DNA from: Candidatus Bathyarchaeota archaeon
GTDB taxonomy: Archaea > Thermoproteota > Bathyarchaeia > Bathyarchaeales > Bathycorpusculaceae
Reading direction: 5' to 3'
NCBI GenBank assembly: GCA_963715865.1
Contig: OY970280.1
Span: forward strand, 1,088,001 to 1,152,000
DNA length: 64,000 nucleotides
The position numbers and the translations under genes were made by a program. Under the pieces are notes generated by a model. The model saw only the letters and a list, made by a program, of their open reading frames with translations, was not told the origin of the DNA and searched no databases. Positions 6,594 to 55,361 of this stretch are shown here, piece after piece; within the stretch, counting starts at the first letter, position 1; each line of letters opens with the position of its first letter.

Positions 6594-7937
6594 CTACAAC
6601 TGGTATTCTCGGCATTTTTCCACAAGCGACACCTGACTGCCAGCGTTTCCCATAAACTTCTTGAATAATTCAGCGTTTTCCGTGTGGATGGGGAAAATCT
6701 GTTTGGCATTTATCTTTCTGAGCGCTGCCTTCAACTGAAGCGGCATCATGTGCCCTGAGACATGTACGTGGTATTGGGGCAAGCCGTAGTGGCTTAGCCA
6801 ATTAATTAGGCGTTCATAGTCAATTTCCATCTCCTCGTTGAAGGGTTCTGATGCTGACAAGACGTAGCAGCTGCCGGCTGCTGGCTGAATGGAAATGAGC
6901 TCTTCAAAATCATAGAAGCTGACCGCTAAAACCACCTTGCATTGCTGCTTCGAAACTTCGAACACGTCGAAAATCTTGTTTTCCCCATCAAAGCGTTCAA
7001 TCAACTGTTTTTCCCACTTGTCATAGCGCTTCTTCGACTTTCGAAAAATCAATATCTCCTCATCATCCAGCGCTGGAACCTGCAAGTGCTTGTCGTTCCG
7101 AAGTGCATCCAGCAAATACGCTTGTTTTAGTGAAACAGCAAGGCACCGATTGTTCTTTTTGGCAATGTGGTAAAAAGAGTTCAATCGGTCAACATCCGAG
7201 TAACCAAACTCTGCAAGCAAGATGCCGTCGACTTGTGATGCAATCTTGTCCAGTTTCGCCTCCACTTCCACTTCGTTGGAAACTGTTGCTCCAGTCATGT
7301 TGGTGGCTTCAGTCACAATTGCCACAGGCTCAGCCTCCTTGGCTTTTTCCACAAATTCATGGGTCATTTCTGGCTTGGCACCGTGGTCTCGAAAGTCGCC
7401 CGTGTAAATTATTGTTCCGTTTGAAGTGTGAATTAGAAAGCCGTAGGCGCCTGGAATTGAATGGTCAACATGGAACGGCTCAACCACTAAGTTGTCTACC
7501 TGAATTTTTTTGCCTGTTCTGAAAACGTTAAAGTTGATGTCTGCAACGTTGAATTCTAAGTCCGCGCGTCGAATGTCGCTTAGGGTTCGCAGGATGGTTT
7601 GTGTTGTTTCGCCGCAGTACACGGGAATTTCCCGTTTAATAAATGACAGATAAGCCGAATGATCCAAATGCCCGTGGGAAAGGAATACAGCGTTTGTTTC
7701 AGGCGGGCTTTGGTCAAACTTGTATACCCCGTTTATCTGCGGCAGAATTCCGAGTTCTTGGAGGCTCTTTTCGTTTTTAGGAGAAAGGAATGGTGGCGAG
7801 TAAAACTGTTTTTTAGCGGTAAAAGACATGCCGAAATCAAAGAAAACCCTCGTATCTCGGTCTTGGAGGAGGATTTTGTTTCCGCCTATCTCGTTAACTC
7901 CGCCATAGAAGGTTAAGGTTGTCTGATTCTTCACCAT
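6594..7937 (-). CDS. Metallo-beta-lactamase/beta-CASP hydrolase, RNase J-like
   Basis: GGVNEIGGN, HGHLDH, HVDHS, YTGDFRDHG, HVSGH, FPIHTE motifs. Confidence 0.85.
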   Translation of the reverse strand: MVKNQTTLTFYGGVNEIGGNKILLQDRDTRVFFDFGMSFTAKKQFYSPPFLSPKNEKSLQELGILPQINGVYKFDQSPPETNAVFLSHGHLDHSAYLSFIKREIPVYCGETTQTILRTLSDIRRADLEFNVADINFNVFRTGKKIQVDNLVVEPFHVDHSIPGAYGFLIHTSNGTIIYTGDFRDHGAKPEMTHEFVEKAKEAEPVAIVTEATNMTGATVSNEVEVEAKLDKIASQVDGILLAEFGYSDVDRLNSFYHIAKKNNRCLAVSLKQAYLLDALRNDKHLQVPALDDEEILIFRKSKKRYDKWEKQLIERFDGENKIFDVFEVSKQQCKVVLAVSFYDFEELISIQPAAGSCYVLSASEPFNEEMEIDYERLINWLSHYGLPQYHVHVSGHMMPLQLKAALRKINAKQIFPIHTENAELFKKFMGNAGSQVSLVEKCREYQL

Positions 7938-7943
7938 GCGCTT

Positions 7944-9647
7944 TCACTTTAGTGCTTCAGTTTTTCTGCAGACGCTTGAAATAGCAGAAATAATGGTCCA
8001 CATTGTGAATATGCTAAAAACCCGTGTGTATTTGGGAGACCCAGCCTTTTTGATGACATTGATGTCTCCGCCAGCCTTCAAGTAGCCGTTTATGAACGTT
8101 TTTGCAATCGATTCAGCTTTACCATTCCCATAAAGCGGTTGAAGGTAATGCCCTGAATAATACAGGAACACAGCTACATCCCAAGCTTTATCGCCGTCTT
8201 GAGTGGCCTGCTCAAAGTCAATCATGTAAATAGAGCCATCCGGTTTAACTAACATATTTTCTGGCTTTGTGTCGCCTAATGCAATATTGTGAGAATGAAC
8301 CTTTGCAAGTATTTCGCCTGCTTTGCCAAGGTTAGCTAGTTCCTCTTCAAATGTTTCGTGCTCTGTAGCCGCGGCTATGCGTTTGATAGCTTGGCTGAGG
8401 TTTTCTCCCTCAATGTACTCCATGAAAATTAAACGTTCAGCATTACTCACATGCAAAATCTTCGGCACATTAAACCCTTCACTGAGCAAAAACTCGCTAA
8501 TGGCACATTCCTTTGCAAGCCTAGCTTGACCTGAAACAGCAAAGGACCTTGCACCTAAAGACCACAAAGTTAATGGAAACCATTTGAATCCAGACCAGTC
8601 TTTAAAGCGTTTAGCTAACACCTTCGTTTCACCGCCTTTCGCGTGAACATTGATCACGTATACGTCGTTCAGCATTCCACCGACTGGTTCAACTTTAATA
8701 TCTTCTCCACTTTGACCCTTCAAAAGCATTTTTTGAGCAAAACCTTTAATGTCAATTTTATCTGCTAACGAAACCAAACCGGCTGAAGTTGGAACGAAAA
8801 CGTATTTTTGGGGATCAATAAACAGGTAGCCCGGGTCTGGCTGTTTTCTCCAATTAATCTTTTGCGTTTTTAGAAAGGCTTCGGTATTCTGTGAAACAAT
8901 ATTCATTAGCTGAGGGAAAACCCCAAAGAACGACGTGAATATCGTCCGTGGCGCATTTTTTGACAGGTTAATAATTTTGATTCTTGGGTCTTGGCATCGG
9001 GCAATAAACTTCTTTGAAATCATTACGTAACCATTTAAAAAGTTAATTTTTCCCTCCGCTTCAAGCTGCCTCAAAGCTTCATTGTAACTGCCGAGTGATT
9101 CGGTCTCATTTGATGTGAGTCCATTCACTAAGTCTGAGAGGTCATAGGCAAGCAAAGGGAAAACTCGGATTCGATTCAAAAGCACCTCGTACATGAAGTA
9201 CTGCGGCTTAATTTGAATTCGATGAGCAAGCTCTGGAAAACTTAACGTCAAATTCTCAAGCAATTCAAGAATCAAACGCTTCTTCAACGTTACCTCTTTT
9301 TCATGCAAGTAATCGTCGCCGTAAAGAGTTGAGTGAGGAAAAACAAGTTTACTTGCAATGGCTTCTCCCAGAAAGCCTCTTTCGATGTCTCGCTCGAAAA
9401 TCCACTGGTCAACCGCAAAAACAAAAATTGTTTTTTCATTTACTGTTTTTAGGTAACTCATTACTCTAGGTTGAAAATCATGGATTACAAGCATTATTTC
9501 TATTAATGTTTTCTCGTTAGCTGTTCTCATTGAATATTTATCAACGTGAGCTATAGCGGTGATGTTTGCGGAGCCAGCGACATGTCTACAAAACTCGAGG
9601 ATTTGATTATTCAATTCGCTGTTTGCGCTGGTGCTAATTTGTTTCAA
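7944..9647 (-). CDS. Uncharacterised N-terminal domain fused to a RIO/Bud32/KdkA-like kinase domain
   Basis: C-terminal VLAKRF, IFMEYIEG, GDTKPEN (catalytic loop), IDFE. Confidence 0.75.
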   Translation of the reverse strand: MKQISTSANSELNNQILEFCRHVAGSANITAIAHVDKYSMRTANEKTLIEIMLVIHDFQPRVMSYLKTVNEKTIFVFAVDQWIFERDIERGFLGEAIASKLVFPHSTLYGDDYLHEKEVTLKKRLILELLENLTLSFPELAHRIQIKPQYFMYEVLLNRIRVFPLLAYDLSDLVNGLTSNETESLGSYNEALRQLEAEGKINFLNGYVMISKKFIARCQDPRIKIINLSKNAPRTIFTSFFGVFPQLMNIVSQNTEAFLKTQKINWRKQPDPGYLFIDPQKYVFVPTSAGLVSLADKIDIKGFAQKMLLKGQSGEDIKVEPVGGMLNDVYVINVHAKGGETKVLAKRFKDWSGFKWFPLTLWSLGARSFAVSGQARLAKECAISEFLLSEGFNVPKILHVSNAERLIFMEYIEGENLSQAIKRIAAATEHETFEEELANLGKAGEILAKVHSHNIALGDTKPENMLVKPDGSIYMIDFEQATQDGDKAWDVAVFLYYSGHYLQPLYGNGKAESIAKTFINGYLKAGGDINVIKKAGSPKYTRVFSIFTMWTIISAISSVCRKTEALK

Positions 9648-9798
9648 TTGGTCACCGATAGTTTGGCCAATATAGAATTAGCATATTGATATATTTAAAA
9701 CACGTTTGTTAACAAAATGAAAAAGTAACTTTTTAACTGAACACCACAGTCCAGCTTAAAGGCTACTTTCTGCCAGAAAGCGCATTAAGTTTTTTGAT

Positions 9799-10236
9799 TT
9801 AGCGGATTTGAAATGCTAAGCGGTTAGTTGGGTCGCTTCTTCCTTTCTTGGCTATCATGCTTACTGTCGACTGGGTTGGTGATTCAACGGTCATTCCTGC
9901 GTTTGTTTGGATTGATATTTTTCGGCATATCAGGTTTAGGGATTCTTCGGTGAAGTTCAGCATGCTTTGTCCATTGCTTGTTAGGCTGTAAATTTTTCTT
10001 GGCCTTTCGGAGTCCATGTTCCATTCGCTGTTTACAAAGCCTTTCTTTTCAAGTGTACCTAGCAATGGGTAGATGGTGCTTGGGCCGAAGTATACGCCGA
10101 AGTTTTTGCGGATTTTGGTTATTATTTGGTATCCGTGCATGGGTTGGGTGCTTAGGAATTGTAGTATTATTAGGTCTAGTAAGCCTTTCATTAGTTTGGT
10201 TGAAACTTCTTTTTGTGAGTTTATACTTCTTAACAT
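9799..10236 (-). CDS. PadR-family transcription regulator
   Basis: MHGYQII...GPSTIYPLLGTLEKKGFV...RKIYSLT. Confidence 0.9.
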   Translation of the reverse strand: MLRSINSQKEVSTKLMKGLLDLIILQFLSTQPMHGYQIITKIRKNFGVYFGPSTIYPLLGTLEKKGFVNSEWNMDSERPRKIYSLTSNGQSMLNFTEESLNLICRKISIQTNAGMTVESPTQSTVSMIAKKGRSDPTNRLAFQIR

Positions 10237-10480
10237 TTTTTTATTCCTTCCTTCTCCGTGTATTTTTGTTGTACAGTTTTTCTGTTCTACTTGTATACAA
10301 TATGTCCTCTTTCGGACATATCTTGAGTATGTTATATTAATAAACCCTAATATAAAGCTTCATACATAACCAAAGCATACAAAAACATAACACCGCAATA
10401 TAACTCAACACAAAATTAACATAAGCTAAATAAATCAAAACATCAACAATTCACAAACAACAGCCAACAGGAAAAAAACC

Positions 10481-11634: not shown

Positions 11635-12324
11635 AAACCAAACAATCTCCTTTTTTTATTTAACAATCCTACTCATTACAAATGTCATCGTCATTTTTTC
11701 TATTTTCGTGAATAAGTAAAAGTGACAGCTTCCAAGGCGCAGGGTTTGTAAATCGTAAGTTTGTTGTTTTATCGATGATTAAATTGTTTGGGTTCATTTG
11801 TTGTAAGCATGGTTTAGGGGCAGAGACGTTTGTTCGTTTTGGTAAATGCTTTGTTCAAACAATCGAGTTAAATGCGGAGGCTATGGATGTTTGTCCGTTC
11901 CTCAAAAAGTTTTGTCTAGGCAATCCCTTGGGCAAAAGGAGCTTTTACCGTTGGAAATCTGAACTTGATGAGTGGGAAGCTCAAGTTGTACCGCCTAGGT
12001 CTTGTAGTTTCTGAAAAGGAAAACAATAGTTCATCATCTTCATCATCAACAAGCAGGCATTACGACCGCCTAGACTTGTGATTTCTGAGGAAACACTAGT
12101 GTCATCATAAACAACTGGTAAATCTGGAGAACCGACAGATGCCGAGTTGTCTGGGCAAAAGGTTGCATTCGCATTTACATAAACTGACTAGTTTACCTCT
12201 CAATAAAGCAGGCAGTTAAGTCGCTGGACCAATATTTACGCCCAAGCTAAATACTCCCGTCATGTTGAAAACAATCTGCATACATCCACCAAAGAACGTT
12301 TTGGAATATCACAAGGTTGAAATT

Positions 12325-12368
12325 TGGGGGACGATGTTTCATTCACGGGGATGATGTCGCCGTCCCAG
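12325..12368 (+). repeat. att-like copy 1 (5' fragment of the C/D sRNA, lacks box D')
   Basis: 22 bp core at 12347-12368 identical to copies 2 and 3; upstream TGGGGGACGATG shared with copy 3. Confidence 0.9.
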
Positions 12369-12505
12369 CCTTAGGGCTTACTGGTTCTTTACTGTTTACT
12401 TGTGTGTTGTCTTGGTTTGTTATCTTTTCCATGTTTATATCCCTACACCGTTATTAGGTAGCTTCTCACATAAGCTTTATCTGGGCAAATACACGGGGTA
12501 CCCTA

Positions 12506-12652
12506 ATGGAAAAAATAGTACTGCTAAAAATTTCAACCATGAAAGGCTCTCGCATAGAGAGCGTTCCTCTAAACAAACTGCGATTATTGGCTGATGACAA
12601 GCACAGGTTCTGGTCTTTAGAAGGCGATTTCTTGGTGCTTAAATCCTATTGA
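12506..12652 (+). CDS. 48 aa small protein (not in ORF track)
   Basis: MEKIVLLKISTMKGSRIESVPLNKLRLLADDKHRFWSLEGDFLVLKSY; a second copy at 13286-13378 differs mostly at synonymous positions, which implies coding constraint. Confidence 0.6.
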   Translation: MEKIVLLKISTMKGSRIESVPLNKLRLLADDKHRFWSLEGDFLVLKSY

Positions 12653-12808
12653 TTTTTTTATTTCGTTTAGCGTAAAAGGCATAGCTTGCCGATGCTATTT
12701 AGGCATGTTTTACATTCCTATTTTCTTCGTTCGCACTGATATGACTTTTTAGAAAAAGTGGGGAAATATATTAAAGTCTTGAGCTGTAGTATTACCTTTG
12801 GTGGTTTC

Positions 12809-13018
12809 ATGTCTGAGGGTGTTCTCCTTACGGATGAAGATAGGGCTTTACTGGTAAAGGTAAGCGGTTTACTTGAGGAAATAGTCGAAACTTTCAGCAT
12901 ACTGGAAGATAAAGAAGCTATGTCTTGCTTAAAAAAGGCTGAAGCAGATGTCAAAGCTGGAAGAGTTAGAGATTATGACGCGTTCCTCAAGGAGCTGAAA
13001 CAAACTGGCGAAATATAA
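12809..13018 (+). CDS. Type II antitoxin (RelE partner)
   Basis: 'ETFSILEDKEAMSCLKKAEADVKAGRV' Phd/RelB-like C-terminal pattern; overlaps the RelE start; ATG at 12809. Confidence 0.75.
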   Translation: MSEGVLLTDEDRALLVKVSGLLEEIVETFSILEDKEAMSCLKKAEADVKAGRVRDYDAFLKELKQTGEI

Positions 13019-13262
13019 ACTGCAGGTTACGAAAACTTTTGAAAAAGATTTTCGAAAGTTTGATACCCAAACAAAACGGAGAATAGACTCAGCGATAAGA
13101 CTGCTTGAAGCTGACCCTTATGTGGGGAAGCCTTTGAGAGGGAATCTTGCTGGTAAATGGTCGATTAGAAGCGGCGACTACAGAGTCATCTATACAATAA
13201 GCGAAAACGAGAAAATAGTGCTACTTTATGACACAAGACATAGAAAGAAAGTCTACGAATAA
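13005..13262 (+). CDS. relE: RelE/ParE-family toxin with a CTG start (not in ORF track)
   Basis: AKYKLQVTKTFEKDFRKF...DPYVGKPLRGNLAGKWSIRSGDYRVIY...HRKKVYE; in-frame TGA at 12996 leaves CTG as the only start; GGAG at 12991. Confidence 0.88.
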   Translation: MAKYKLQVTKTFEKDFRKFDTQTKRRIDSAIRLLEADPYVGKPLRGNLAGKWSIRSGDYRVIYTISENEKIVLLYDTRHRKKVYE

Positions 13263-13285
13263 CTCAAACAGCCAATTTGTGTCAC

Positions 13286-13378
13286 GAGTGTTCCTTTGAC
13301 AAATTACGATTGTTAGCTAATGATAAACATAGGTTTTGGTCTTTAGAAGGCGATTTCTTGGTTTTGCATTCCTATTAG
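13286..13378 (+). pseudogene. 3' fragment paralogous to the 48 aa gene
   Basis: Translates VP-DKLRLLANDKHRFWSLEGDFLVLHSY* with a 1 nt deletion; direct repeat of 12559-12652. Confidence 0.75.
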
Positions 13379-13394
13379 TTTTGTCGATTTGGAG

Positions 13395-13781
13395 TTAAAC
13401 GTTTGCAATTAACCTAACCTTTGTAGGTCTATTATGATTAACTTCAACAATCCTCAGGTACGCAAGCAGAGGAGCAACATAGGATGCTTGAGAGTGCTTA
13501 CTCTTAGTTTTAGTGGTTAACCGTAGGTACTTTTCAAGTGTAAAGTCATCAACATAGGAAGTAGCTTCATGCTTTGCTCCAATCTTAACCCAACTCTTGC
13601 CCTTAAGAAACTTTGGGATTCCATTGAAGCTGTCCTTTGAAACTTCGATTTCTATAGTTTTAATAAAGAATACCACTCTATCGGCTTCTACTGATTTAAC
13701 TGTAAATGGTTTGTCGTAATAGGGAGTGCCCAATTCTAAACCTGAATGTACTTCTTTTTTTATTCTATCAAATACTGACAT
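13395..13781 (-). CDS. Hypothetical protein
   Basis: 128 aa ATG ORF; no recognised motif. Confidence 0.7.
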   Translation of the reverse strand: MSVFDRIKKEVHSGLELGTPYYDKPFTVKSVEADRVVFFIKTIEIEVSKDSFNGIPKFLKGKSWVKIGAKHEATSYVDDFTLEKYLRLTTKTKSKHSQASYVAPLLAYLRIVEVNHNRPTKVRLIANV

Positions 13782-13797
13782 ATGGCATCCAACTTTT

Positions 13798-14217
13798 CTA
13801 TGGGTTACGTTCTAATTCAGCGATAGAGGGAAGGCTCTCTCCATTTTCAAGTCTATTCATCAATCTATTGATCCTTTCCAATAGCTTCCTATGTTCGCCT
13901 CTCATGTGAATTATAATATAGACTCCGCCAATAGCACTCATAATAAATGCTATATCACCACCTAAAACACTAAGTGTATAGTAGATTGTTACAGAAACAG
14001 TGATTAACAGTATTAAACCACCCGCAGCGATTGCACTCAAGAAATTAAACCATGATTCCTCATGGCTAGCTATAATCTGAACTTTCTGAAAATCGACCTC
14101 TCGTTTGGTATCCTTTGACTTATCACAAATTGAATCAAGTTTTTCCTTGAGAGCCTTTATAGTATCTAAATCTTTGCTAATTTCCTTCACTGCCTTCTCC
14201 AAATCACTCTCAGACAT
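13798..14217 (-). CDS. Hypothetical two-TM protein with coiled-coil N-terminus
   Basis: Likely ATG at 14217; two hydrophobic helices. Confidence 0.65.
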   Translation of the reverse strand: MSESDLEKAVKEISKDLDTIKALKEKLDSICDKSKDTKREVDFQKVQIIASHEESWFNFLSAIAAGGLILLITVSVTIYYTLSVLGGDIAFIMSAIGGVYIIIHMRGEHRKLLERINRLMNRLENGESLPSIAELERNP

Positions 14218-14605
14218 GTTTACGCTATTTCTCGGTTGTTTGAATTTAAAACTTTCTTGAAAGCTTCTTTCCAAAAAAGGTTAACTCTGCCGCAATCGAC
14301 AGAGCCCTTAGGTGTGTGGGGGTTGCCTTTTAAGGAGGGGTCATCCACTGCCTGAGGTGTCGATTGCTTGTAAGAATCCCCTAAGGAGTGTGGAGTTCTG
14401 GAGTTCAGGGCATCGCTGATGTACAGTTTCGGTTTGTCGTTGCTTCTTAAGCTGGGTAATACCTATTTTGCTTAAACATATCTATTACCATGAAAAAGCT
14501 ATATTTGTCCGTCTCTTCTTTGCTGATGATGCCTCTTTCTACCTACTAAATTGTAATAATTCGTGCAAAAAAATTAATATAGCAAAAACGAAAACCGTAT
14601 GCAGT

Positions 14606-14731
14606 CAGTAGCGCGGAAGGAAAGCAGGGAGCGGGAGCAACTCGGTGGTCTTTTCCCGCACACTGGCTCCTTAACGCGGTGGCTCAGGTGCTTGCTTCCT
14701 CGTACCTACGCGTCTTCCGCGCATTTTCTAC
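14606..14731 (+). ncRNA. Candidate structured RNA or DNA hairpin element
   Basis: Perfect 9 bp closing stem GCGCGGAAG/CTTCCGCGC plus nested stems; TTAATATA at 14574; T-rich tail. Confidence 0.4.
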
Positions 14732-15116
14732 TTAAGACGAGGGCAGTTTTAAGCTTTGCTCTCATATCGAAGTTAATTGAGAGCCTGTCAATCACTAATG
14801 AACGCGAAGATTTTGGTCGTTTTTATGTCAATTTAGTATATGGATATCAATTTCTTTGTTGGAATATACTTAGAGAATTTGATGAATGCTGTTGTTTCAA
14901 GACCACATATATATAAAACTGTTCCATGAAGAAAGACAATAGCTTTCGATTGAATTTCGCAAAAACTATGTAAAATTTACATAAAGCGAAAATTGTCGTA
15001 ATTAATTGAACGCAGACTTTTCACATAACTATCAGAGTTTTATTAGGTAACTCGATTAGTTACCTTAATCACATATCCCTGCAACAAGCCCAATACGTTA
15101 ACAATATTCATATCTA

Positions 15117-15167
15117 ACTGGGATGCTGTATTATTCACGGGGGATGATGTCGCCGTCCCAGTCTGAT
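15117..15167 (+). repeat. att-like copy 2 (box C, guide, box D')
   Basis: 29 bp at 15139-15167 identical to 19322-19350; upstream ATTCAC shared with copy 1. Confidence 0.9.
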
Positions 15168-15364
15168 AGCGGTTTCCCGCTGTTCTTATTTTCTATTTCA
15201 GTCATTTTTCAAACCTCATTGGTAGATATAATCGCAATTTGGGCTTAAAAGGCTTGCTAACGCTGAATTATAGATTGGTAGAGCAAAATTAACGTTAATA
15301 ACGTGCGCCAGAGCTTTAGTTGGTATTATATACCAGTTAAGTTAAGAAACTAACTTGGTAGTGC

Positions 15365-16300
15365 ATGGTTCAATACTCAACACAAGAAGCAGCTAAGCGA
15401 ATCGGTATTAGTTTCATTACTCTGAAGAGGTGGATTTATTCTGGTAAAATCAAGGCGGTTAAGGATGAAAGAGGATGGTGGAGAATTGACGAAGAAGAGA
15501 TTGTTCGCATAGTTACTGAGGTACGCGGTACAAGGCAAGGGCTAGCAGAGAAAATTTTAGCTCTTATTTTCTCTAAGCGAGTGGCGTATCTTAGAGAGCT
15601 TCAAGTTTGTCTTGAAGAGGATTGCTTGCATAAGGATGTGAATGCTACTCTGGCAAGTCTTTTCAATGTGGGCAAGATTGACACGAAGTCAGCTTTTGGT
15701 GATAGATGGTTTTTCCCCAAAAGTTTGACTTGGGAAAATGTCGAGCAGACTGCTAAAGAGAAATTAGAATTAATCAATTTATATGTGAGTCATCCAAGAC
15801 GTTTTGAAAAAGACAGCGTCGTCTATATGGATTATTCGGAATATCTTGTTGAGCAAGCGTTAATCACAGCTTCGTATGTTGTGGTGTCAAAGGATGCTTA
15901 CTACTTCAATGGTCGTTCATATCGGCGAAGCTTGACCGCAGGTAGACCTACCGATTTGGACTTCATTGCAAAAGTTCCTCAAAAAGAAATCTTTGTTGGT
16001 ATTCAAGTGAAAAACAAGATGCAGCACCCTTCGCTTGATGAAGTTAACTCACTTTTAGATATTTGTGGCTTCTTAGGGCTTAAACCAGTCCTTGTTGCTC
16101 GTATAATACACCCAAAGACCTATGAATTGCTTAAGGAGAATGGCGGTCGTGCATTAAGGGTTAAACGGTACTTCTTGCAGCCGCCTTTTCCGAGAGATAG
16201 GTTTCAAGATATCGTCGGTTTGGGTATTCCTTTGGGTGTCTATAATCGGGCACCTGATTTTTTGGTAAATATGTTCAAGAGTTTACCTGCGGCTCTTTAG
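15365..16300 (+). CDS. Excisionase/MerR-like HTH fused to a PD-(D/E)xK restriction-endonuclease-like domain
   Basis: N-terminal YSTQEAAKRIGIS..TLKRWIYSGKIKA...WRI; C-terminal TDLDFIAK...GIQVKN. Confidence 0.75.
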   Translation: MVQYSTQEAAKRIGISFITLKRWIYSGKIKAVKDERGWWRIDEEEIVRIVTEVRGTRQGLAEKILALIFSKRVAYLRELQVCLEEDCLHKDVNATLASLFNVGKIDTKSAFGDRWFFPKSLTWENVEQTAKEKLELINLYVSHPRRFEKDSVVYMDYSEYLVEQALITASYVVVSKDAYYFNGRSYRRSLTAGRPTDLDFIAKVPQKEIFVGIQVKNKMQHPSLDEVNSLLDICGFLGLKPVLVARIIHPKTYELLKENGGRALRVKRYFLQPPFPRDRFQDIVGLGIPLGVYNRAPDFLVNMFKSLPAAL

Positions 16301-16757
16301 CTGTTTACTGTATCATTTCTAAGCAGTAGAATTAAAATACAAAAGTTCTATTATTATCTCGCTTTTCTGTTTGTTACTAAAAAATAATTTTTTGAACTGT
16401 TTTAGCTTCACCGATATTAAAACACTGTATTGGTAGAGAGCAGTGCTCCTAACAGAGTTTTGCTCCGTAAAAAAATCTGAAAATGGATTGAAAACAATTG
16501 AAAGAAAAAAATATAGCTATAATTTTAAGAATGTTTCCAGAACGATGGAAGCAAGTAAATATCCCATAGAAAAAGCTCTGCCATCGAATCGCCTTACCCC
16601 GACTCTCATCATAAAGTGAAACAAATCTGCAAGGCTTCGTTGGTCGAGAGCAAAGAGCCTTTGATGAAATTTTTAATATCCAGCTTCGCCATTGAAAAGT
16701 TGAAAAGTGAAACTTAAAATCCTGAGCTATCGCTCTTTACTGAGTCTCGACCGCGCG

Positions 16758-17213
16758 CTAAAACTCCTCTCCGCTGCTTTTATGGAACTTCCCGTCTTTA
16801 CAAAGGTGCATGAGAGGAAAATCTTTTGGAACCTCTTTTCTGCAAACTGGACAATTTACATAAACAGGATGTTTCCAACCAACCGGGAAACCCCTCGAAT
16901 CTCTTTCTATTTTTTCAACAAATCTAATTCGTTCGTTTGTTGTGAGATTGCTTGAATTACGGTTCTTCACTTCTTCTTCGTGGTCAGCCATAATATGGTC
17001 TAAAGCTATGTTTTCAGCAAGCTCTCTCCCATACTTACGACCAAACATTTCACCGACAAGTTTTACTGTATTCGAATCATGTCTATATTGCCTGTGAGAT
17101 TGTGAATAGCTTTTGCTCGGTTCGTCAATATAACTGTGAATATCATCACCTCTAATACCATACCGCTTTAACGAATGCTGGCAATGTTCTTCGTGTTGAG
17201 GTACCCCAGACAC
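16758..17213 (-). CDS. His-rich putative metal-binding protein (DUF6915-like pattern) with a C-terminal Cys motif
   Basis: HEEHCQHS...IHSYID...HRQYRH...DHIMADH; CPVC...HLC. Confidence 0.6.
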   Translation of the reverse strand: MSGVPQHEEHCQHSLKRYGIRGDDIHSYIDEPSKSYSQSHRQYRHDSNTVKLVGEMFGRKYGRELAENIALDHIMADHEEEVKNRNSSNLTTNERIRFVEKIERDSRGFPVGWKHPVYVNCPVCRKEVPKDFPLMHLCKDGKFHKSSGEEF

Positions 17214-17293
17214 CTCTTAATAAAAAATAAAATTGGTATTGTTTTCTTTATAAGATTTGTCACATCTCATTTGCGAGCTATCTTTATTTTCCC

Positions 17294-17430
17294 TGTGTGT
17301 GTGAGCGCCAAAACATAGGTATTTGAATAATACAAATATGACAGCATTAACCAAACTTGTGTGTGTTGGCGAAAAAACTATGGTACAAAAATAATAAAAG
17401 CGTAGTTTGGTTGTGTGTGGTTGGACTATG
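17294..17430. repeat. Three imperfect direct repeats with a (TG)n core
   Basis: TGTGTGTG followed by ...(C/A)TA(T)GG(G)TA at ~17294, ~17357 and ~17411. Confidence 0.5.
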
Positions 17431-17598
17431 GGTATAAAATTAATATCAGTTTTTAAAAAGTTTCACAAATGCTGGAAGGCGCAAAGTCCTAGAAGCATTG
17501 TGATATGTTCATCTTTAGACCCATGTTTCGCTTTTGCAGAATTTCAAACTGTTTTTTTCTCTGACTTGCAAAACTGAAAACAAAAAAAGGAGAACTTG

Positions 17599-17931
17599 CT
17601 ACTTGCAAGTTTTCTGAATCTCACTATTCAGCAATTTCAGCAACTTCGTCACGTCAGCATTATTACTGTAGTCCTTAGTTGCATCCTTGAAATTTTCCAA
17701 AGACGACTCGTTCAGCTTCTCCTCTTTACCTGCTTTTATTCCCGTTATAGTCAATCCTGTCAACAGCTCGTAGCGTAGTTCCACGAGTAGGCAAACCTTG
17801 TTTGATAGACTAAGTTTCGCATCGGCTTCAATGAAATTTTTTGCTGTGTCAACGGTCAAAAGTTTTCCGTGCTTCTCTTGTTCTTCCAGAACTTTTCTCA
17901 CACAGCCCAACTTATCAACCATAATAACCAC
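17599..17931 (-). CDS. Hypothetical protein
   Basis: 110 aa ORF; no recognised motif. Confidence 0.6.
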   Translation of the reverse strand: MVIMVDKLGCVRKVLEEQEKHGKLLTVDTAKNFIEADAKLSLSNKVCLLVELRYELLTGLTITGIKAGKEEKLNESSLENFKDATKDYSNNADVTKLLKLLNSEIQKTCK

Positions 17932-17968
17932 AAGCCATTATTGCGGTCAATACTAAAAGATGTTTCAC

Positions 17969-18223
17969 TTAAGAAATGAATCCCGCATCTTTTTCTTCCT
18001 CTATGTCCAATTCCAAATTTAAAATAACCAGTATTCCAAACAACATCAGCGGTCCCCAAACAAAGAAGAAGAATAAGGATATCGCTGAACCATCAGCTAA
18101 TTGTCCAAAGACGAGAACAAATGGTGTTAAAAACCTTAGAAACAGTGTAAGCCATCAAAGTACCACTTCTGCATAGCATAGCGTCAAAACAAGGCTTTTT
18201 ATGAATTTACTGCGAGTTTTCAT
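17969..18223 (-). pseudogene. Small membrane protein gene with one in-frame TGA
   Basis: MKTRSKFIKSLVLTLCYAEVVL*WLTLFLRF...DAGFIS*; the TGA is codon 23 (18155-18157). Confidence 0.55.
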
Positions 18224-18412
18224 TGTCGCCTACCGCAATTTTTTTCAGTGGACACACTCCGTTTTAAGGTCTTGATTAGTTCAAGAACTCCTGCCGTGCA
18301 GCCGTCATTAAGTCGTTCAGTCACTTGCTCATCTACTTAGCGTGCGCAAGAAAGTGCGGAAAAGTAATTCTTTTCATTTTCATTTGTTTAAGTAAAATTA
18401 CTAACTGAACTC

Positions 18413-18811
18413 TTACTTAGCCCTCGCTATGAGCAAAAAGCCGACTAACGTAACCCCAAATATAACCGCAATCCATGCTATTGCATTATAGTACCACCAC
18501 ACATTCAAATGAGGAAACGTTAGAAAATCTCCAATGAAGGTTATTACACTGTTAATCAACAATATTCCAAAAGCAAGCACTGTAACTAAAGCCGCAAGTT
18601 TTGTCCACCTATGTTTACGCCGCATAATAGCCAAGCCGAGCGTTATGAACGCAATGATAACCCACAGAAAAGCTAAAGAATATATCCAAGCCGTGGCATC
18701 CCAATAACTAAAAATCGGATTAACAATAAACAGTATTGTAGCTATCAGCAATAATGACGCGCCAATTAATTGGAGCTTAGTCTTTTTACTGACCCTTAAC
18801 TCCATAGGCAT
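18413..18811 (-). CDS. Four-TM membrane protein; its N-terminal double zinc ribbon appears frameshifted
   Basis: In-frame upstream ...DKADFCPKCGAE; the first ribbon (F-CPK-G) is recoverable only with frameshifts near 18870. Confidence 0.6.
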   Translation of the reverse strand: MPMELRVSKKTKLQLIGASLLLIATILFIVNPIFSYWDATAWIYSLAFLWVIIAFITLGLAIMRRKHRWTKLAALVTVLAFGILLINSVITFIGDFLTFPHLNVWWYYNAIAWIAVIFGVTLVGFLLIARAK

Positions 18812-18974
18812 CTCAGCACCGCATTTTGGGCAAAAATCCGCTTTATCATCATTAACATCTTGACCCAGACTTAGGACAAACTCTAATGTTTTAGACTCCA
18901 GTCGGCGTTTCTCGTTGTGAGTATCTTGTATTTAGCTTTTTAAAATTTGTGCACTAAAGTTTAATCTGATTCCT

Positions 18975-19286
18975 CTACTTTCGCTTTCTGAATAGCTTGA
19001 CTCCATCTATTTCTGTGACGTACTCGAAGCCTTGCTCAATGAGATTCTGAGCTTCTTGCAATGTCTTCGCAGTAGCAGAATGATATTCATCGCCTTCAAT
19101 TTCAATTAGTTGCGTATATCTTAAAGTTGTCCGCAAGTCTTTATGCCCAAGAAGTCTTTTAACATGAAGCAAATCTTTTGTTCTATGATACTCCATTGTC
19201 GCCTTGAAGTGTCTGAAGTCATACAATCGAATGCTCTTTAAGCTCATGTCACCGTATGCTTTCTTGTTCATGTTCCAACATGTCAA
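18975..19286 (-). pseudogene. Tyrosine recombinase/integrase, C-terminal fragment
   Basis: YDFRH (HxxR-like box), LGH, catalytic Tyr in TTLRYT, tail GFEYVTEIDGVKLFRKRK; the N-terminal domains and first catalytic Arg are missing. Confidence 0.9.
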
Positions 19287-19320
19287 GAATACTTTATTTG
19301 TGGGGGACGATGCTACATTG

Positions 19321-19388
19321 TGGGGGATGATGTCGCCGTCCCAGTCTGATCGGGAAAGATGAAGAATTCGAGATTTAGACAGACCCCA
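19321..19388 (+). ncRNA. Box C/D methylation guide sRNA; D' guide predicts 23S rRNA Gm2251 (E. coli numbering)
   Basis: Terminal stem TGGGG/CCCCA; C ATGATGT 19327-33; guide CGCCGTCCCAGT; D' CTGA 19346-49; C' ATGAAGA 19359-65; D CAGA 19380-83. Deviations from consensus are compensated by Watson-Crick pairs in both K-turns. TATA-like CTTTATTT lies ~29 nt upstream. Confidence 0.8.
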
Positions 19389-20090: not shown

Positions 20091-20156
20091 TTTATAAACA
20101 AAATTCAATGAAAGAGAGAGCTATTGAGCGAGAGCAAACCTTACGCTTTCGTTCAA
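20091..20156 (+). promoter_or_regulatory. TATA box plus 5' leader hairpin of surface protein 1
   Basis: TTTATAAA at 20091; stem TGAGCGAGAGC/GCTTTCGTTCA at 20125-20155. Confidence 0.7.
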
Positions 20157-20180
20157 ATAAAATTTAGGAGAAAAAGAAAA

Positions 20181-22865
20181 ATGCAAATTACAAAAAGTAA
20201 AACTGCAGCTATTGCTATTGCTATATTCTTAATGCTTTCGATGTCAGCTTCAATGATGCTTGTACCAAATGCTAGTGCACATACACCTGCATGGCAGATT
20301 CCAACATATGCCTACATACAAGGTTTGCCTAACCCGGTCGGTGTCGGTCAGTCAGTGCACATTCTCATGTGGCTTGACAAGGTAATAGATGGAGCAGAAC
20401 CAACCAATGACATTCGGTTCCAGAACTACAAGCTCACCATTACTGCACCTGACGGCACAATAACAACACAAACTTTTCCTGTTTGCACAGACCCAACATC
20501 AAGTCAGGGCTATACCTATACTCCTACCCAAGCCGGCACATACAATCTCACCTTTACTTTCCCAGGACAAGTGTACACATACACCGAACCAGTCATGAGC
20601 TTCTTCGGTCCTCCCGCGCCAAGTCAATTCATAAACGATACTTATGAGGCCAGCTCTGCGTCAGCAACACTTACTGTTCAGCAAGCACCAGTAGGCATAT
20701 ATCCAACTACTCCGCTTCCGACGGCGTACTGGACGCGCCCAATATACGGTGAGAACTGGAACTGGTATACGGTTTCGTCAAACTGGCTAGGTGCAGGTGT
20801 ACCAGGCTTCGCGAGTGGTTTCCCAGGTGATGCTGTAGGTCCTCTCACTGGCCATGTCATGTGGACAAAGCCGCTTGATATGGGAGGAGTTGTCGGAGGA
20901 AACGAAACTGTTATTCAGGGAGACACATACGCCGAGGGATCTGCATACGCTACTAGATACAGCAACCCAATAATAATAGACGGGTACCTATACTACACGG
21001 AACCAATATCACTTGCGGGTACCCCAGGAATGTTCGGGGGTACGGGTTATGGACCAACCGTCTGCGTTAACCTGCAAACAGGACAACTTATTTGGTCTCG
21101 GACTGATGTACCTGCGCTATCCTTCGGTTATATCTATGACGTTCAAGACCCTAACCAGCACGGAGTTTATCCGCCAATTCTAGTTGCAAGCATTGGAGGA
21201 TCCTTCCTTGGACCTCCAGTACCGACGACATGGGAAGCTTTTGATGCATACACAGGAAACTTTCTGTTCAACGTAACCAACGTTCCCTCGGGCACAACTG
21301 TACTCGGTCCGAATGGTGAACACTTGATAATTAGCCTGACAAATGATGGACCAATGACAATGACACCTTTTGGCCCTGTTCCTAGCGGTCCACCGCAGTA
21401 TTATTTGAGTGAATGGAACTCCTCTAGACTGTGGGATAATCAATACTCAGGGCCGTCAACAACACCAAGCGTAGTTCCACCCATTACTGACGGAAACGAT
21501 CCAAGCTTATATGACTGGAACATTTCGATACCATCGCTCAACACTATGACCTCACCACCTACTATAGAAGCAGCTTTCAGTGGTAATATGTTGCTTTGCA
21601 TGAGCGGCTCTTACCCTGCTGGTCCTAGTACTTTATTCAGTGCAGCAAGCAGTGCTCCCTACACGTACTTCACTGTCAATCTCGACCCAAGTAAAGGTGC
21701 GATCGGTTCAGTACCATGGACAAATACAGTTAGCGCACCAGCAGGCAACATAACTGTCGAATTTGTCGGAGCCGATCCAACGGCTGGTGTCTTCGTTGAA
21801 TACCATGCGGAAACTTTGCAATGGGTAGGATACAGCCTGACAACAGGCAAGCAAATTTGGGGTCCAACCGGCAATCAAACAGCCCTTGACTTCTACTGGA
21901 TGGGCTGGTCTAGCATGGCCGGGCATATAGCTTACGGGAACCTCTACAGTTGCAATGGTATGGGAGGAATAATCTACTGTTATAATTTGAAAACTGGAAA
22001 CCTAGAGTGGACCTACGGTAACGGCGGCGCAGGCAACAGTACTAACAGCGGTTTACCGTGGCCTGGTCCATATCCAACTATCATATACGCTATTGCCAAC
22101 GGAGTAATATACACGATTACTAATGAGCACACTTTCGAAACACCGATTTTCAAGGGTGCATTGTCACGCGCTATTAATGCTACAACCGGGCAAGAAATCT
22201 GGACTGTTTCAGCTGCCTCAGCCTCTTCCGGATCAACTGCTATCGCAGACGGCTATGCAACATGGTTCAACGGCTATGACAACCAAATCTACGTTGTTGG
22301 CAGAGGACCCAGCGATACCACAGTACAGGCACCACTGACTCAAATTACAGCAGGCAACAAAGTAGTTATACAGGGCACAGTGATGGATATTTCTGCGGGC
22401 ACAAAGCAAACTCAGCAGGCAGCAGACTTTCCAAATGGTGTTCCAGTTGCATCTGATGCAAGCATGAATGATTGGATGGGCTTCGTTTACCAGCAACAAC
22501 CATGCCCAACCAATTTCACAGGCGTTACAGTATCAATAGACGCTATTGATCCGAACAGTAATCTCATCCACATCGGCGACGCCACAAGCAATGCAAACGG
22601 CTTATTCTACTACACTTGGACGACTCCAAACATCCCAGGGGACTACCTCGTCACCGCAACATTCGCTGGCACCAACAGTTACTGGCCGTCAAACGCACAA
22701 ACCGCCATGACCGTACAAGAAGCACCATCAGTAGCACCGACCGCTACACCTCAATCAAACCTAGCAACCACAGCAGACCTAATGACGTACATAGCCGTTG
22801 CCGCAATCGCTATAATCATTGCAATAGCCATAGCCACAGTCCTCATGCTCAGGAAACACGCGTAA
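20181..22865 (+). CDS. Cell-surface PQQ-like beta-propeller protein (paralog 1)
   Basis: Signal peptide, N-terminal Ig-like region (PNPVGVGQ), YWTRPI and WTKP motifs, repeated D..TG...W, C-terminal Ig-like domain, Pro/Thr linker, TM anchor and RKHA tail; ATG at 20181 after AGGAG. Confidence 0.88.
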   Translation: MQITKSKTAAIAIAIFLMLSMSASMMLVPNASAHTPAWQIPTYAYIQGLPNPVGVGQSVHILMWLDKVIDGAEPTNDIRFQNYKLTITAPDGTITTQTFPVCTDPTSSQGYTYTPTQAGTYNLTFTFPGQVYTYTEPVMSFFGPPAPSQFINDTYEASSASATLTVQQAPVGIYPTTPLPTAYWTRPIYGENWNWYTVSSNWLGAGVPGFASGFPGDAVGPLTGHVMWTKPLDMGGVVGGNETVIQGDTYAEGSAYATRYSNPIIIDGYLYYTEPISLAGTPGMFGGTGYGPTVCVNLQTGQLIWSRTDVPALSFGYIYDVQDPNQHGVYPPILVASIGGSFLGPPVPTTWEAFDAYTGNFLFNVTNVPSGTTVLGPNGEHLIISLTNDGPMTMTPFGPVPSGPPQYYLSEWNSSRLWDNQYSGPSTTPSVVPPITDGNDPSLYDWNISIPSLNTMTSPPTIEAAFSGNMLLCMSGSYPAGPSTLFSAASSAPYTYFTVNLDPSKGAIGSVPWTNTVSAPAGNITVEFVGADPTAGVFVEYHAETLQWVGYSLTTGKQIWGPTGNQTALDFYWMGWSSMAGHIAYGNLYSCNGMGGIIYCYNLKTGNLEWTYGNGGAGNSTNSGLPWPGPYPTIIYAIANGVIYTITNEHTFETPIFKGALSRAINATTGQEIWTVSAASASSGSTAIADGYATWFNGYDNQIYVVGRGPSDTTVQAPLTQITAGNKVVIQGTVMDISAGTKQTQQAADFPNGVPVASDASMNDWMGFVYQQQPCPTNFTGVTVSIDAIDPNSNLIHIGDATSNANGLFYYTWTTPNIPGDYLVTATFAGTNSYWPSNAQTAMTVQEAPSVAPTATPQSNLATTADLMTYIAVAAIAIIIAIAIATVLMLRKHA

Positions 22866-23815: not shown

Positions 23816-24967
23816 TTAGCGCCCCATTGTAGACGTATCTACCTTTTTATCTGATTTGTTTAATAGTGGAGACCAGAAATCTATGGGAAATAGTGGACTC
23901 TTATCTAAGTAGAGGTCGACTTGATCAATATTCTCGAGTCGATCGGTCATCTCTTTCAATTCAAAGAAGTCGGAAAGCTCTCTCACCGCAACACCTATAC
24001 ACAGATCAAGTGGTGATGCAACAAACCTTATCGACGTGATGACGTTCGGCGTCTGCAATATTTGGCCAAGGATATCTTCTATCTTGTTTTTGTTTTTAGC
24101 TTTGATGTATATAAGAACCCAAGCAGGGTATCCGATCTTGCTTAAATCGACTACTATCGTGGAAAGTGTCAGCACGTTTGTTTTGAGTTTTTTGTATCTC
24201 TGGATTACGGTATTGGTTGATATGTTGAGTTCTTTGGCTATTTTGCTGAAGGATTTCCTAGATTCCTTTACGAGTATTGCTGCAATCTGGCGATCCAGAT
24301 CATCGATTTCCGCTTTTTTCTCGAGATCTACAGCCTCTCGTCTGGGTAGTTTCAAATCATTTTTCTCTTTTCCTAATAACAGATTTTCAGGATGTTCCGC
24401 AATGGGATGTCCCCAAATTAGTGGGTTTTCTGTGCGTTTGACATAGATGCAGGATTCTATATACTTCAATACTTGGGTAAACTCGTTCATGTTTCGACAG
24501 GCTAAAGCTGCACCAATATTGTTTTTGCCGATAGGAGGCAGGATTCTTACAACATTATAATTCATTAGTAGATATTTTTCGACTTCCTTCTCTTTGCCTT
24601 TGAACGTTTGGATTGACAAACCTGCAAAGATATCGTAACCCAAGCTGTGGGGGTTTACGAGTGTTATTTCGCCTTTTATGATGCCTTTTCTTTTGAGGTT
24701 TGCAATCCGCATTTGGGTTGCGCCAACGGTTATGCCGCATTTATGGGCGATCTCTGTTAGGCTTGTGCGAGCATCGCATAGCATCATCTTCAAAATCTTG
24801 GCATCGATTTCATCAATCGTATTTTTATTAGATGAGTTATCCAATGGTTTATCCGCCGAACCTGAATTTGATATTTCATTGGGCTGTTCAGCATTTAAGC
24901 ATATCTGTAATCTGTTTCTGACTGAACGTTTTTTAGAATTATGAGATAAAAATTGAATTATATTCAA
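23816..24967 (-). CDS. Tandem (double) Lrp/AsnC-family transcription regulator
   Basis: Two HTH-RAM units: IDEIDAKILKMMLCDARTSLTEIA and IDDLDRQIAAILVKESRKSFSKIAKEL; start uncertain. Confidence 0.85.
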   Translation of the reverse strand: MNIIQFLSHNSKKRSVRNRLQICLNAEQPNEISNSGSADKPLDNSSNKNTIDEIDAKILKMMLCDARTSLTEIAHKCGITVGATQMRIANLKRKGIIKGEITLVNPHSLGYDIFAGLSIQTFKGKEKEVEKYLLMNYNVVRILPPIGKNNIGAALACRNMNEFTQVLKYIESCIYVKRTENPLIWGHPIAEHPENLLLGKEKNDLKLPRREAVDLEKKAEIDDLDRQIAAILVKESRKSFSKIAKELNISTNTVIQRYKKLKTNVLTLSTIVVDLSKIGYPAWVLIYIKAKNKNKIEDILGQILQTPNVITSIRFVASPLDLCIGVAVRELSDFFELKEMTDRLENIDQVDLYLDKSPLFPIDFWSPLLNKSDKKVDTSTMGR

Positions 24968-25047
24968 TAATCAGCAATTTTGGCACAAGTTTTATAAGCG
25001 ATGAGATGACAACTTTGATTTCATCAAAAAAAGGAGAATAAAAATAC

Positions 25048-27931: not shown

Positions 27932-28029
27932 TGTAAACTATTGGTGACATAGACAAGTTACTAATATTCAAATTAATAAAACTCAGCTGCACTGTAACAA
28001 TAGTTACCCAAGTATAGGAGCTAAAAAAA

Positions 28030-55329: not shown

Positions 55330-55361
55330 TTTTCAATTTCCTCCTCAATGTTTTACTTGCT

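Follow-up and report, generated by a model that had tools for sequence, protein, structure and literature searches.

Small integrase-carrying mobile elements insert into a guide-RNA gene in peat-soil Bathyarchaeia

In peat-soil archaea of the Bathyarchaeia, a small guide-RNA gene for a ribosomal RNA methylation, rather than a tRNA gene, is the landing site for a family of small mobile elements that carry a tyrosine integrase. The window analyzed here, a 64,000-nucleotide stretch of a Candidatus Bathyarchaeota archaeon genome (assembly GCA_963715865.1, contig OY970280.1), holds two decayed copies of such elements inserted in tandem. We place the probability of this reading at about 0.85, with the expression and function of the guide RNA, and the continued movement of the intact relatives, being inferred rather than demonstrated.

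Three copies of the core and one complete sRNA

The 22-nt core occurs exactly three times in the window, in each case on the + strand (Table 1), and none of these is expected by chance, since shuffled sequences gave 0 matches. Within the core lies GGGATG-N7-CGTCCC, and a second GGGA(C/T)G(A/C)TG motif lies 20-21 nt upstream of each copy. Copies 2 and 3 share TCATTGGTAGAT 54 and 59 nt after the core. Only copy 3 continues into a complete box C/D-like sRNA of ~66 nt. A fourth exact core, belonging to a second complete sRNA, was found elsewhere in the genome at C1:601614, so that the genome has two target sRNA genes.

Table 1. Coordinates of the attachment sites, sRNA parts and element genes in the window
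Feature	Position	Strand	Description
attL	12318..12368	+	Chromosomal promoter-proximal region (TATA-like TTGAAATTT and the GGGGGACGATG motif at 12326-12336) plus the 5' part of the sRNA (C box and D' guide)
Core, copy 1	12347-12368	+	22-nt core
Element arm (P') at attL	12369..12390	+	CCTTAGGGC.., then T-rich sequence; looks like a decayed copy of the middle of the sRNA, D' changed from CUGA to CUUA
Element 1	12369..15139		About 2.8 kb, decayed remnant with no integrase; also holds two repeated micro-ORFs
relB-like	12758-13018		Element 1
ParE/RelE-type toxin reading frame	12999..13262	+	Element 1; 87 codons, stop to stop
Orphan ORF	13395-13781	-	Element 1
Orphan ORF	13798-14274	-	Element 1
Orphan ORF	14599-14916	+	Element 1
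Element-type upstream arm	about 15090-15139		Element 1
Copy 2, hybrid junction	15140..15184	+	Right end of element 1 and left end of element 2; core plus TCTGATAG (D' box kept), then a hairpin and a T-run that look like a terminator
Core, copy 2	15140-15161	+	22-nt core
Element 2	15162..19322		About 4.2 kb, decayed
HTH-nuclease-like gene	15365..16300	+	Element 2; 311 aa
DUF6915	16758-17213	-	Element 2
Orphan ORF	17599-17931	-	Element 2
Weak acyltransferase C-terminal fragment	18413-18811	-	Element 2
Tyrosine integrase pseudogene	18975..19286	-	Element 2; first ~11 and last ~93 codons kept
Element-derived upstream arm (P) of attR	19287..19322	+	TATA-like TACTTTATTT at 19290-19299 and GGGGGACGATG motif at 19302-19312; back to back with the integrase start
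Restored box C/D-like sRNA	19322..19387	+	attR core plus the chromosomal 3' half
5' stem	19322-19326	+	GGGGG
Core, copy 3	19323-19344	+	22-nt core
C box	19327-19333	+	AUGAUGU
D' guide	19334-19345	+	12 nt
D' box	19346-19349	+	CUGA
C' box	19359-19365	+	AUGAAGA
D box	19380-19383	+	CAGA
3' stem	19384-19387	+	CCCC

The guide pairs with the 23S P-loop

To test the assigned target, we compared the D' guide with the 23S rRNA of the same genome, in which the P-loop reads GCUGGGGCGGCA at 23S position 2361. The guide pairs at 11 of 12 positions, 9 Watson-Crick and 2 G.U, and this is its best match in the 23S. Checking of the numbering against E. coli rrlH gave C2248 U2249 G2250 G2251, so the fifth guide nucleotide upstream of D' faces 23S G2365, the equivalent of E. 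coli G2251, as the first-pass annotation had proposed. The sRNA is conserved in 37 of 40 genomes of the genus and 78 of 103 of the family. Across 35 distinct full versions the C box, 12-nt spacing, D' box, terminal stem and guide are invariant, while the second spacer varies.

An alternative is that the 66-nt sequence is only a conserved recombination target, or another kind of RNA, and that its match to the P-loop is coincidental or vestigial. In favor of this, the D box is CAGA rather than the canonical CUGA, the second spacer is 14 nt here and 11-14 nt in orthologues with no rRNA target, and the folding energy is no better than that of shuffled sequences. In Rfam, all matches were below their gathering scores, and no RNA data show that the sRNA is made or bound by L7Ae. 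However, the sequence is kept in empty sites that have no element, so it is not maintained by the elements, and the best sub-threshold Rfam hits are C/D families led by yeast snR67, which aligns over the same guide. Consistent with a guide function, fibrillarin and Nop5 are encoded in this genome, and Gm1950 of H. marismortui (= Gm2251) is listed as made by aFIB plus an sRNA (PMC11542601). We therefore consider the alternative unlikely.

Empty and occupied sites indicate integration rather than duplication

Three direct repeats within 7 kb, in a window where neither element has a working integrase, might also have arisen by plain segmental duplication or unequal crossing-over of the sRNA promoter region. 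To distinguish these possibilities, we compared the locus in relatives. The relative G036 has an empty site, in which a single sRNA lies between its flanks, whereas the relative G027 has the same flanks plus a half copy and a 1.7-kb insert. The left flank of G036 (9289-10035) matches G027 (7797-8533) at 85% identity, with homology ending exactly at the end of the core, at ...CCCAG; the G036 sRNA (10010-10077) matches the second G027 copy (10210-10276), and the right flanks match. The core is therefore duplicated around the insert. In another relative, a housekeeping OsmC-like gene lies directly upstream of a single sRNA.

The half-copy junction is widespread, being found in 43 genome stretches, about 39 of them in Bathyarchaeia MAGs, and in 80 metagenome loci. 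The same arm follows 154 of the 239 cores examined in relatives and metagenomes, and only about 20 nt of it are conserved. The same foreign arm follows half copies in more than 100 independent loci. The site is fixed while the cargo varies: peat contig L193, from a close relative, has flanks 87-92% identical to those of the window (87% for the left flank through the core of attL) and the same attL and attR, but an unrelated 4.8-kb interior. In addition, peat-metagenome contigs join 11636 to 19321, skipping 7.7 kb, at depths of 73 and 173 against about 10 for the contig bearing element 2, although these joints come from contigs and what lies between is not known. Taken together with the intact integrases at the predicted end, these observations contradict a plain duplication.

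Intact integrases abut the restored sRNA

Full-length tyrosine integrases of 283-318 aa (PF00589, E 3e-7 to 3e-14) lie 40-60 nt from the intact sRNA and face away from it in more than 10 loci, in four relatives and many metagenome contigs, always between a half copy and a full copy or beside a full copy. They are often accompanied by a ~330-aa gene inferred to encode a rolling-circle Rep.

The integrase fragment in the window had been described in the first-pass annotation as 5'-truncated, but this is not the case. Pfam PF00589 matches only profile positions 118-168 of 172, and the box II residues are visible. By blastn against the relative G114, which encodes a 286-aa integrase (E 6e-13), window positions 18976-19254 match 1499-1777 and 19255-19388 match 2327-2457, so that 549 nt are missing. 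This is a clean in-frame deletion of 183 codons at 19254/19255, which removes the N-terminal part of the catalytic domain. The start codon is TTG where the relative has ATG. The upstream arm of attR is 90% identical to the arm next to the intact G114 integrase.

We also considered an SSV-type ('suicidal') integrase, in which attP lies inside the integrase gene and the fragment would be the Int(C) half produced by integration. Integrase similarity does start next to the att site, and the minus-strand frame stays open through the core up to about 19400. However, the G114 homologue, the closest found and 91% identical over the shared part, is a complete gene whose ATG lies 40 nt outside the core, and the window keeps that start region. 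No Int(N) was found beside copies 1 or 2, and the intact integrases of integrated elements are not split. This possibility is therefore contradicted.

An integron-like resident platform, in which a chromosomal integrase next to the sRNA captures and shuffles promoter-less cassettes, was also considered. The integrase always lies next to the intact site, the cargo is highly variable and often a single gene, and tandem arrays occur, both in the window and at one other locus. On the other hand, empty sites lack the integrase altogether, so it arrives with the insert; intact inserts also carry the probable replication gene, and the integrase lies between the two att copies. A resident platform is thus very doubtful.

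Two decayed elements in tandem

The first-pass annotation had read the locus as two elements integrated in tandem, and this reading fits: copy 2 has the conserved element-type upstream arm, and copy 1 has the conserved element-type downstream arm. The arm at 15090-15167 matches the arms next to integrases in relatives. The downstream arm of copy 2 is so far unique, as no other example was found among the 239 cores; its hairpin has z = -2.35 against shuffles. Both elements are decayed and probably immobile on their own.

No integrase similarity was found in element 1, which keeps a relBE module. The toxin-antitoxin pair noted in the first-pass annotation is real, the toxin matching Pfam PF05016 (E 3e-11, 44 bits against a 23-bit cut-off), although no ATG, GTG or TTG occurs in its frame before 13122. 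In element 2, the gene noted earlier as a nuclease encodes an N-terminal Xis/MerR-type HTH (HTH_17; PF12728, E 7e-8) and a restriction-endonuclease-like domain. Its D..D...Q-V-K motif is invariant in homologues, of which 80 were found, some of them fused to TIR domains, so it is probably a defence gene. In the AlphaFold model (pLDDT 90.7) the Foldseek top hits are FokI, Bax1, NucS and EcoT38I, at E 7e-4 to 1e-2 and with low TM-scores. Positions 16557-19037 of element 2 are covered by a peat contig at about 99% identity.

Discussion

These results support a model in which the sRNA gene is the chromosomal attachment site (attB) for small integrative elements of about 2.7-9 kb in this Bathyarchaeia family, the D' guide being inferred to direct 2'-O-methylation at the G2251 equivalent. 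The element's attP is a look-alike of the sRNA gene, with a TATA-like box, a GGGAYG motif, the C box, the D' guide (identical to the host over about 16-25 nt, ending at ...CCCAG) and a decayed copy of the sRNA middle. Recombination inside the identical core inserts the element; the crossover is inferred, from sequence symmetry only, to lie in the 7-nt spacer between GGGATG and CGTCCC. On the left, the host promoter and the 5' half of the sRNA are left joined to the T-rich arm of the element as a dead half gene (attL). On the right, the element's own promoter and 5' half are joined to the host 3' half (attR), so that an intact guide RNA is rebuilt next to the integrase gene. No circular or excised form was found, with 0 hits in the viral contig collection, and contigs in which integrase, arm, core and arm are contiguous could be tandem hybrids rather than attP. 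Many inserts are short remnants without an integrase, so that present-day mobility of the intact relatives is an inference.

Integration into conserved non-coding RNA genes is already known, and we found no paper reporting a C/D sRNA att site. In the integration of archaeal and bacterial elements into tRNA genes by lambda-type, non-SSV tyrosine integrases, the integrase gene likewise sits next to attP, attP copies part of a conserved small RNA gene, integration duplicates that part and rebuilds an intact gene at one end, and tandem arrays and decayed remnants are common. Here, however, the target is a box C/D guide-RNA gene, and it is the 5' half and the promoter that are duplicated, so that the element supplies the promoter of the restored gene, whereas integrases that target tRNA genes usually use the 3' part. 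A 2021 review of archaeal tyrosine recombinases lists only tRNA genes, intergenic regions and protein-coding genes as attB (PMC8371274). In Bacteria, the tmRNA gene ssrA and the 4.5S RNA gene ffs (PMC12540744) are conserved housekeeping RNA genes that serve as attB and are restored after integration; the present case is in Archaea, the RNA is an rRNA-modification guide, and the elements are very small and plasmid-like, not phages. The SSV-type integrases of Sulfolobales and Thermococcales (PMC7253208) are also archaeal tyrosine recombinases of small integrative plasmids or viruses, but here attP lies outside the integrase gene and integrated copies keep a whole integrase. Finally, among P-loop Gm guides, yeast snR67 (25S Gm2619) and archaeal sR22-like sRNAs in Rfam have a similar guide core, GUCGCC..CCCA before a D-type box, and probably the same target nucleotide, although all scores are below the family thresholds (19 bits against 55), and the RNA described here is a short archaeal dual-box RNA with a CAGA D box and one G.U in the guide duplex.

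The box C/D-like sRNA and its predicted 23S rRNA target

To determine how often the 22-nt core occurs, we searched the window for exact matches and found three, all on the + strand, whereas dinucleotide-preserving shuffles gave none. Each copy is preceded at 20-21 nt by a GGGA(C/T)G(A/C)TG motif, and only copy 3 continues into a complete box C/D-like RNA. The whole genome is one 2.35-Mb contig (C1), with the window at 1088001-1152000, and it holds a fourth exact core that belongs to a second complete sRNA. This paralogue has the same 5' half (C box, P-loop guide and D' box) but a different, exactly 12-nt second guide, GCUUAUGACGGA. The same second-guide class sits next to elements in the loci L049, L050 and L054 of relatives, so the genome has two possible target sites. 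A strict dual-box pattern found only these two RNAs in the genome.

Features of the integration locus and its surroundings (window coordinates unless C1 is stated)
Feature	Position	Strand	Detail
Core, copy 1	12347	+	22 nt
Core, copy 2	15140	+	22 nt
Core, copy 3	19323	+	22 nt
5' stem	19322-19326		GGGGG
C box	19327-19333		AUGAUGU
Guide	19334-19345		12 nt
D' box	19346-19349		CUGA
C' box	19359-19365		AUGAAGA
D box position	19380-19383		CAGA, after a 14-nt spacer
3' stem	19384-19387		CCCC
Fourth exact core	C1:601614		in the second complete sRNA
Second complete C/D-like sRNA	C1:601613-601682		outside the window
Upstream motif CUGGGAYG	12326-12336, 15119-15128, 19302-19312		
Element 1	12369-15139		no integrase
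Small ORFs bracketing the relBE pair	12506-12652 and 13277-13378		
84-nt direct repeat	12573-12656 and 13299-13382		81% identical; encodes the ends of the two small ORFs
Hairpin followed by a T-rich run	15165-15200		AGCGG..CCGCU; right after copy 2
Element 2	15162-19322		
HTH plus nuclease-like protein	15365-16300		311 aa
Integrase ORF, internally deleted	18975-19286	-	103 aa
Large paralogous secreted or surface proteins	20124-22865 and about 24000-30000		913 and 896 aa
tRNA-Asn and an eL15 ribosomal-protein leader	39057-39133 and 55360-55406		only Rfam matches above threshold in the window

The genome's single 23S gene reads GCUGGGGCGGCA at position 2361, and this is the guide's best match in 23S: the guide pairs at 11 of 12 positions of 2361-2372, with 9 Watson-Crick and 2 G.U pairs. 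To place this match in the E. coli numbering, we took rrlH from MG1655 and counted C2248 U2249 G2250 G2251. The guide nucleotide five positions upstream of D' therefore faces the G2251 equivalent, which is G2365 here. In a permissive Rfam scan all matches to the sRNA were C/D families, all of them below threshold, and the best was yeast snR67, whose alignment covers the same guide. Consistent with a role in methylation, a review table lists H. marismortui Gm1950 (= Gm2251) as made by fibrillarin plus an sRNA (PMC11542601), and fibrillarin and Nop5 genes lie side by side in this genome.

Across relatives we collected 35 distinct full versions of the RNA, in which the stem, C box, guide, D' box, C' box and CAGA-CCCC are kept, while the second spacer varies in length (11-14 nt) and sequence. 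The C-D' spacer is exactly 12 nt, and the C box matches 6 of the 7 positions of RUGAUGA. The D box, however, is CAGA in all 35 versions and not CUGA, and the second guides of both the window sRNA and the paralogue gave no convincing match in 16S or 23S. The folding energy of the sRNA was not better than that of shuffles. That the sRNA is expressed and functional is inferred. The 21-nt 5' part was found in 37 of 40 sampled genomes of the genus and in 78 of 103 of the family, was rare elsewhere in the order, and was not found in the other orders sampled.

Empty and occupied sites indicate integration rather than duplication

Many relatives have a full sRNA plus a half copy 1-5 kb away. The half copies break at ...CCCAG and continue with the same foreign arm, CCTTAGGGCAAAGTAAT followed by T-rich sequence; this holds for 154 of the 239 cores examined, and only about 20 nt of the arm are conserved. 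The exact junction occurs in 43 stretches of species-representative genomes, about 39 of them labelled Bathyarchaeia/Bathyarchaeota, and in 80 metagenome loci. The clearest test of plain duplication as the alternative was a comparison of two genomes of relatives, G036 and G027, which share the left-flank gene and the right-flank genes. Left-flank homology (85%) runs up to the last base of the core, the sRNA of G036 matches the second copy in G027, and the right flanks match. G027 therefore equals G036 plus a 1.7-kb insert bounded by a duplicated core. In another genome, G011, an OsmC-like housekeeping gene lies directly upstream of a single sRNA. By contrast, the genome G020 (locus L030) was rejected as an empty site, because its single sRNA is preceded by an element-type arm and the first integrase codons.

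In a peat contig closely related to the window (L193, flanks 87-92% identical), attL and attR are in the same places, but the 4.8 kb between them is unrelated to the window's elements. Contigs from two peat runs join 11636 to 19321 at depths of 73 and 173, whereas the contig carrying element 2 has a depth of about 10; because these are contigs, and the letters between the two sides are not known, we take this only as support. In locus L040 (G029:C3:1229566 and 1230419), two half-type cores lie 0.85 kb apart with no full sRNA nearby, in a different chromosomal context from that genome's sRNA locus (L039), which could be an element integrated elsewhere or a rearranged remnant. The right flank of the sRNA differs widely between relatives, so the neighbourhood, which in the window includes the large paralogous proteins with weak PQQ_2 and Ig-like hits, is a variable region beyond the elements. 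No element is inserted at the window's tRNA-Asn.

The integrase is internally deleted in the window and intact in relatives

In the genomes G009 and G007, a 315-aa ORF on the opposite strand starts about 60 nt from the intact sRNA, lies between the half copy and the full copy, and matches Phage_integrase. The same arrangement recurs with intact genes in loci L049, L050, L076 and L083, and in metagenome contigs L129, L131, L160, L177 and L168. Relatives match PF00589 at E 3e-7 to 3e-14 over most of the profile. The window's ORF carries box II and the catalytic Tyr region only, aligns with residues ~216-314 of those proteins at 39-45% identity, and so represents the integrase in the window only as a pseudogene.

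The closest relative of this ORF is in the genome G114, 91% identical; that gene is a 286-aa integrase (E 6e-13) whose ATG lies 40 nt from a full sRNA with a nearly identical upstream arm. Window 18976-19254 matches the 3' part of the G114 gene, and window 19255-19388 matches its first 32 nt, the arm and the sRNA, so that 549 nt (183 codons, in frame) are missing. Thus the gene is internally deleted, and not 5'-truncated as the first-pass annotation had described it. Nor is it an Int(C) half of the SSV type, in which attP lies inside the integrase gene and the gene is split on integration; no Int(N) was found beside copies 1 or 2. No half copy was found within 14.5 kb of the intact integrase of G114. 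The genome G106 has a 283-aa member of this second clade between a half copy and a full copy, in a 2.7-kb element. This integrase family is very abundant in the genus: 105 of 120 genomes have matches, with up to 19 per genome, mostly in ~380-450-aa reading frames and not next to the sRNA, which suggests many other integrative elements with other targets.

Cargo of the elements

Repeat-bounded inserts range from 0.9 to about 9 kb, and those with intact integrases are 2.7-9 kb. Base composition does not set the elements apart clearly. Several share a ~330-aa protein with an invariant PHFHILGF (HUH-like) motif and Cys clusters, whose ESM Atlas neighbours carry Rep_1, Zn_Tnp_IS91 or REP_ORF2-G2P, with feature scores of 0.95-0.96 and TM-scores of 0.41-0.47. 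Pfam searches at E up to 10 and a PDB profile search gave nothing meaningful, and a structure model from a 3-sequence alignment was unusable (pLDDT 31). A rolling-circle Rep is therefore only a lead, somewhat more likely than not. One relative's insert (L024, 9145-10608) carries a DDE transposase (PF01609, E 5e-8) inside the sRNA-bounded segment, a mobile element nested within a mobile element.

To look for an excised form, we examined attP-like metagenome contigs. At least 8 contigs have integrase, arm, core and arm contiguous, but tandem hybrids give the same picture, and none has terminal overlap or closes into a circle; L125 and L161 merge into 5.9 kb without closing, and L131 is bounded by attL and attR. 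A scan of the viral contig collection for the half-copy junction gave 0 hits.

In the window, element 1 holds two repeated micro-ORFs, a RelB-like ORF and a ParE/RelE frame (PF05016, E 3e-11), together with orphan ORFs and, at its right end, the conserved element-type upstream arm. The toxin frame lacks a canonical start codon, and the 86-aa ORF upstream overlaps it by 20 nt but has no Pfam hit. Element 2 begins with the 311-aa protein, which has an Xis/MerR-type HTH and a confident model (pLDDT 90.7) whose best structural matches are restriction-endonuclease-fold nucleases, at modest scores. The family, with homologues P0021, P0026, P0029, P0030, P0032 and P0034, has members fused to TIR domains, which hints at an undescribed defence-gene family carried as cargo. 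Element 2 also holds a DUF6915 protein, orphans and a weak acyltransferase fragment.

Anatomy of the attachment site

Native upstream regions and element upstream arms both carry a TATA-like box, then CUGGGAYG, then about 10 variable nt, then the core. The element thus copies the promoter as well as the 5' half. The downstream arm reads like a decayed sRNA middle, in which CUGAU.GGGAAAGAUGA has become CUUA.GGGCAAAGUAA, and we infer that attP descends from a captured sRNA gene. The core contains GGGATG, 7 nt, then CGTCCC, and a crossover in that spacer is plausible for a tyrosine recombinase. The upstream CUGGGAYG is also the reverse complement of the guide's CGUCCCAG, which may reflect either a third, protein-binding site or a leader that pairs with the guide.

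Copy 2 in the window is different. It keeps TCTGATAG, then has a strong hairpin and a T-run (z = -2.35) that look like a terminator for the truncated sRNA transcript, and it shares TCATTGGTAGAT with the chromosomal flank of copy 3 at almost the same offset. No other example of this arm was found among the 239 cores examined.

It is conceivable, although unlikely, that attP acts as a promoter-bearing pseudo-sRNA. Integration would then hand control of the host's P-loop methylation guide to the element, because the restored gene runs from the element's promoter, back to back with the integrase promoter. The attL chimera, which keeps the C box and the P-loop guide but has a dead D' box, could be transcribed as a decoy that binds pre-rRNA without methylating it. 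The element would thus tune, or hold hostage, a universally conserved ribosome modification rather than merely using a neutral landing pad.

Taken together, these results support the observation and the interpretation of the first-pass annotation, that mobile DNA integrated in tandem into a guide-RNA gene. This is a real and recurrent integration system, and its target is a box C/D-like guide-RNA gene, although expression of the RNA and present-day mobility remain to be shown and the window's own two elements are remnants. The system defines a family of very small integrase-bearing elements, probably with a Rep gene, in Bathyarchaeia, an abundant lineage whose mobile elements are barely known. 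That the elements rebuild the sRNA on every integration gives indirect, evolution-based support that it matters to the host. The att site is short, well defined and conserved in the family; an integrase with such a target is the kind of part that a genetic system would need if these archaea come into culture.

Comparison with known integration sites

The 2021 review of archaeal tyrosine recombinases names tRNA genes, intergenic regions and protein-coding genes as attB, with no sRNA (PMC8371274). A survey of Pyrobaculum C/D sRNAs mentions MITE-like sRNA look-alikes but no integrase sites (PMC6009581), and the Bathyarchaeia virus survey does not describe att sites (PMC10541130). As far as the open-access literature that we searched shows, this is the first non-tRNA RNA-gene att site described for Archaea. 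In bacteria, tmRNA and, recently, the 4.5S RNA gene are known RNA-gene att sites (PMC12540744). The system analyzed here adds box C/D-like guide-RNA genes to the short list of RNA genes used as integration sites, so far tRNA, tmRNA and 4.5S RNA.
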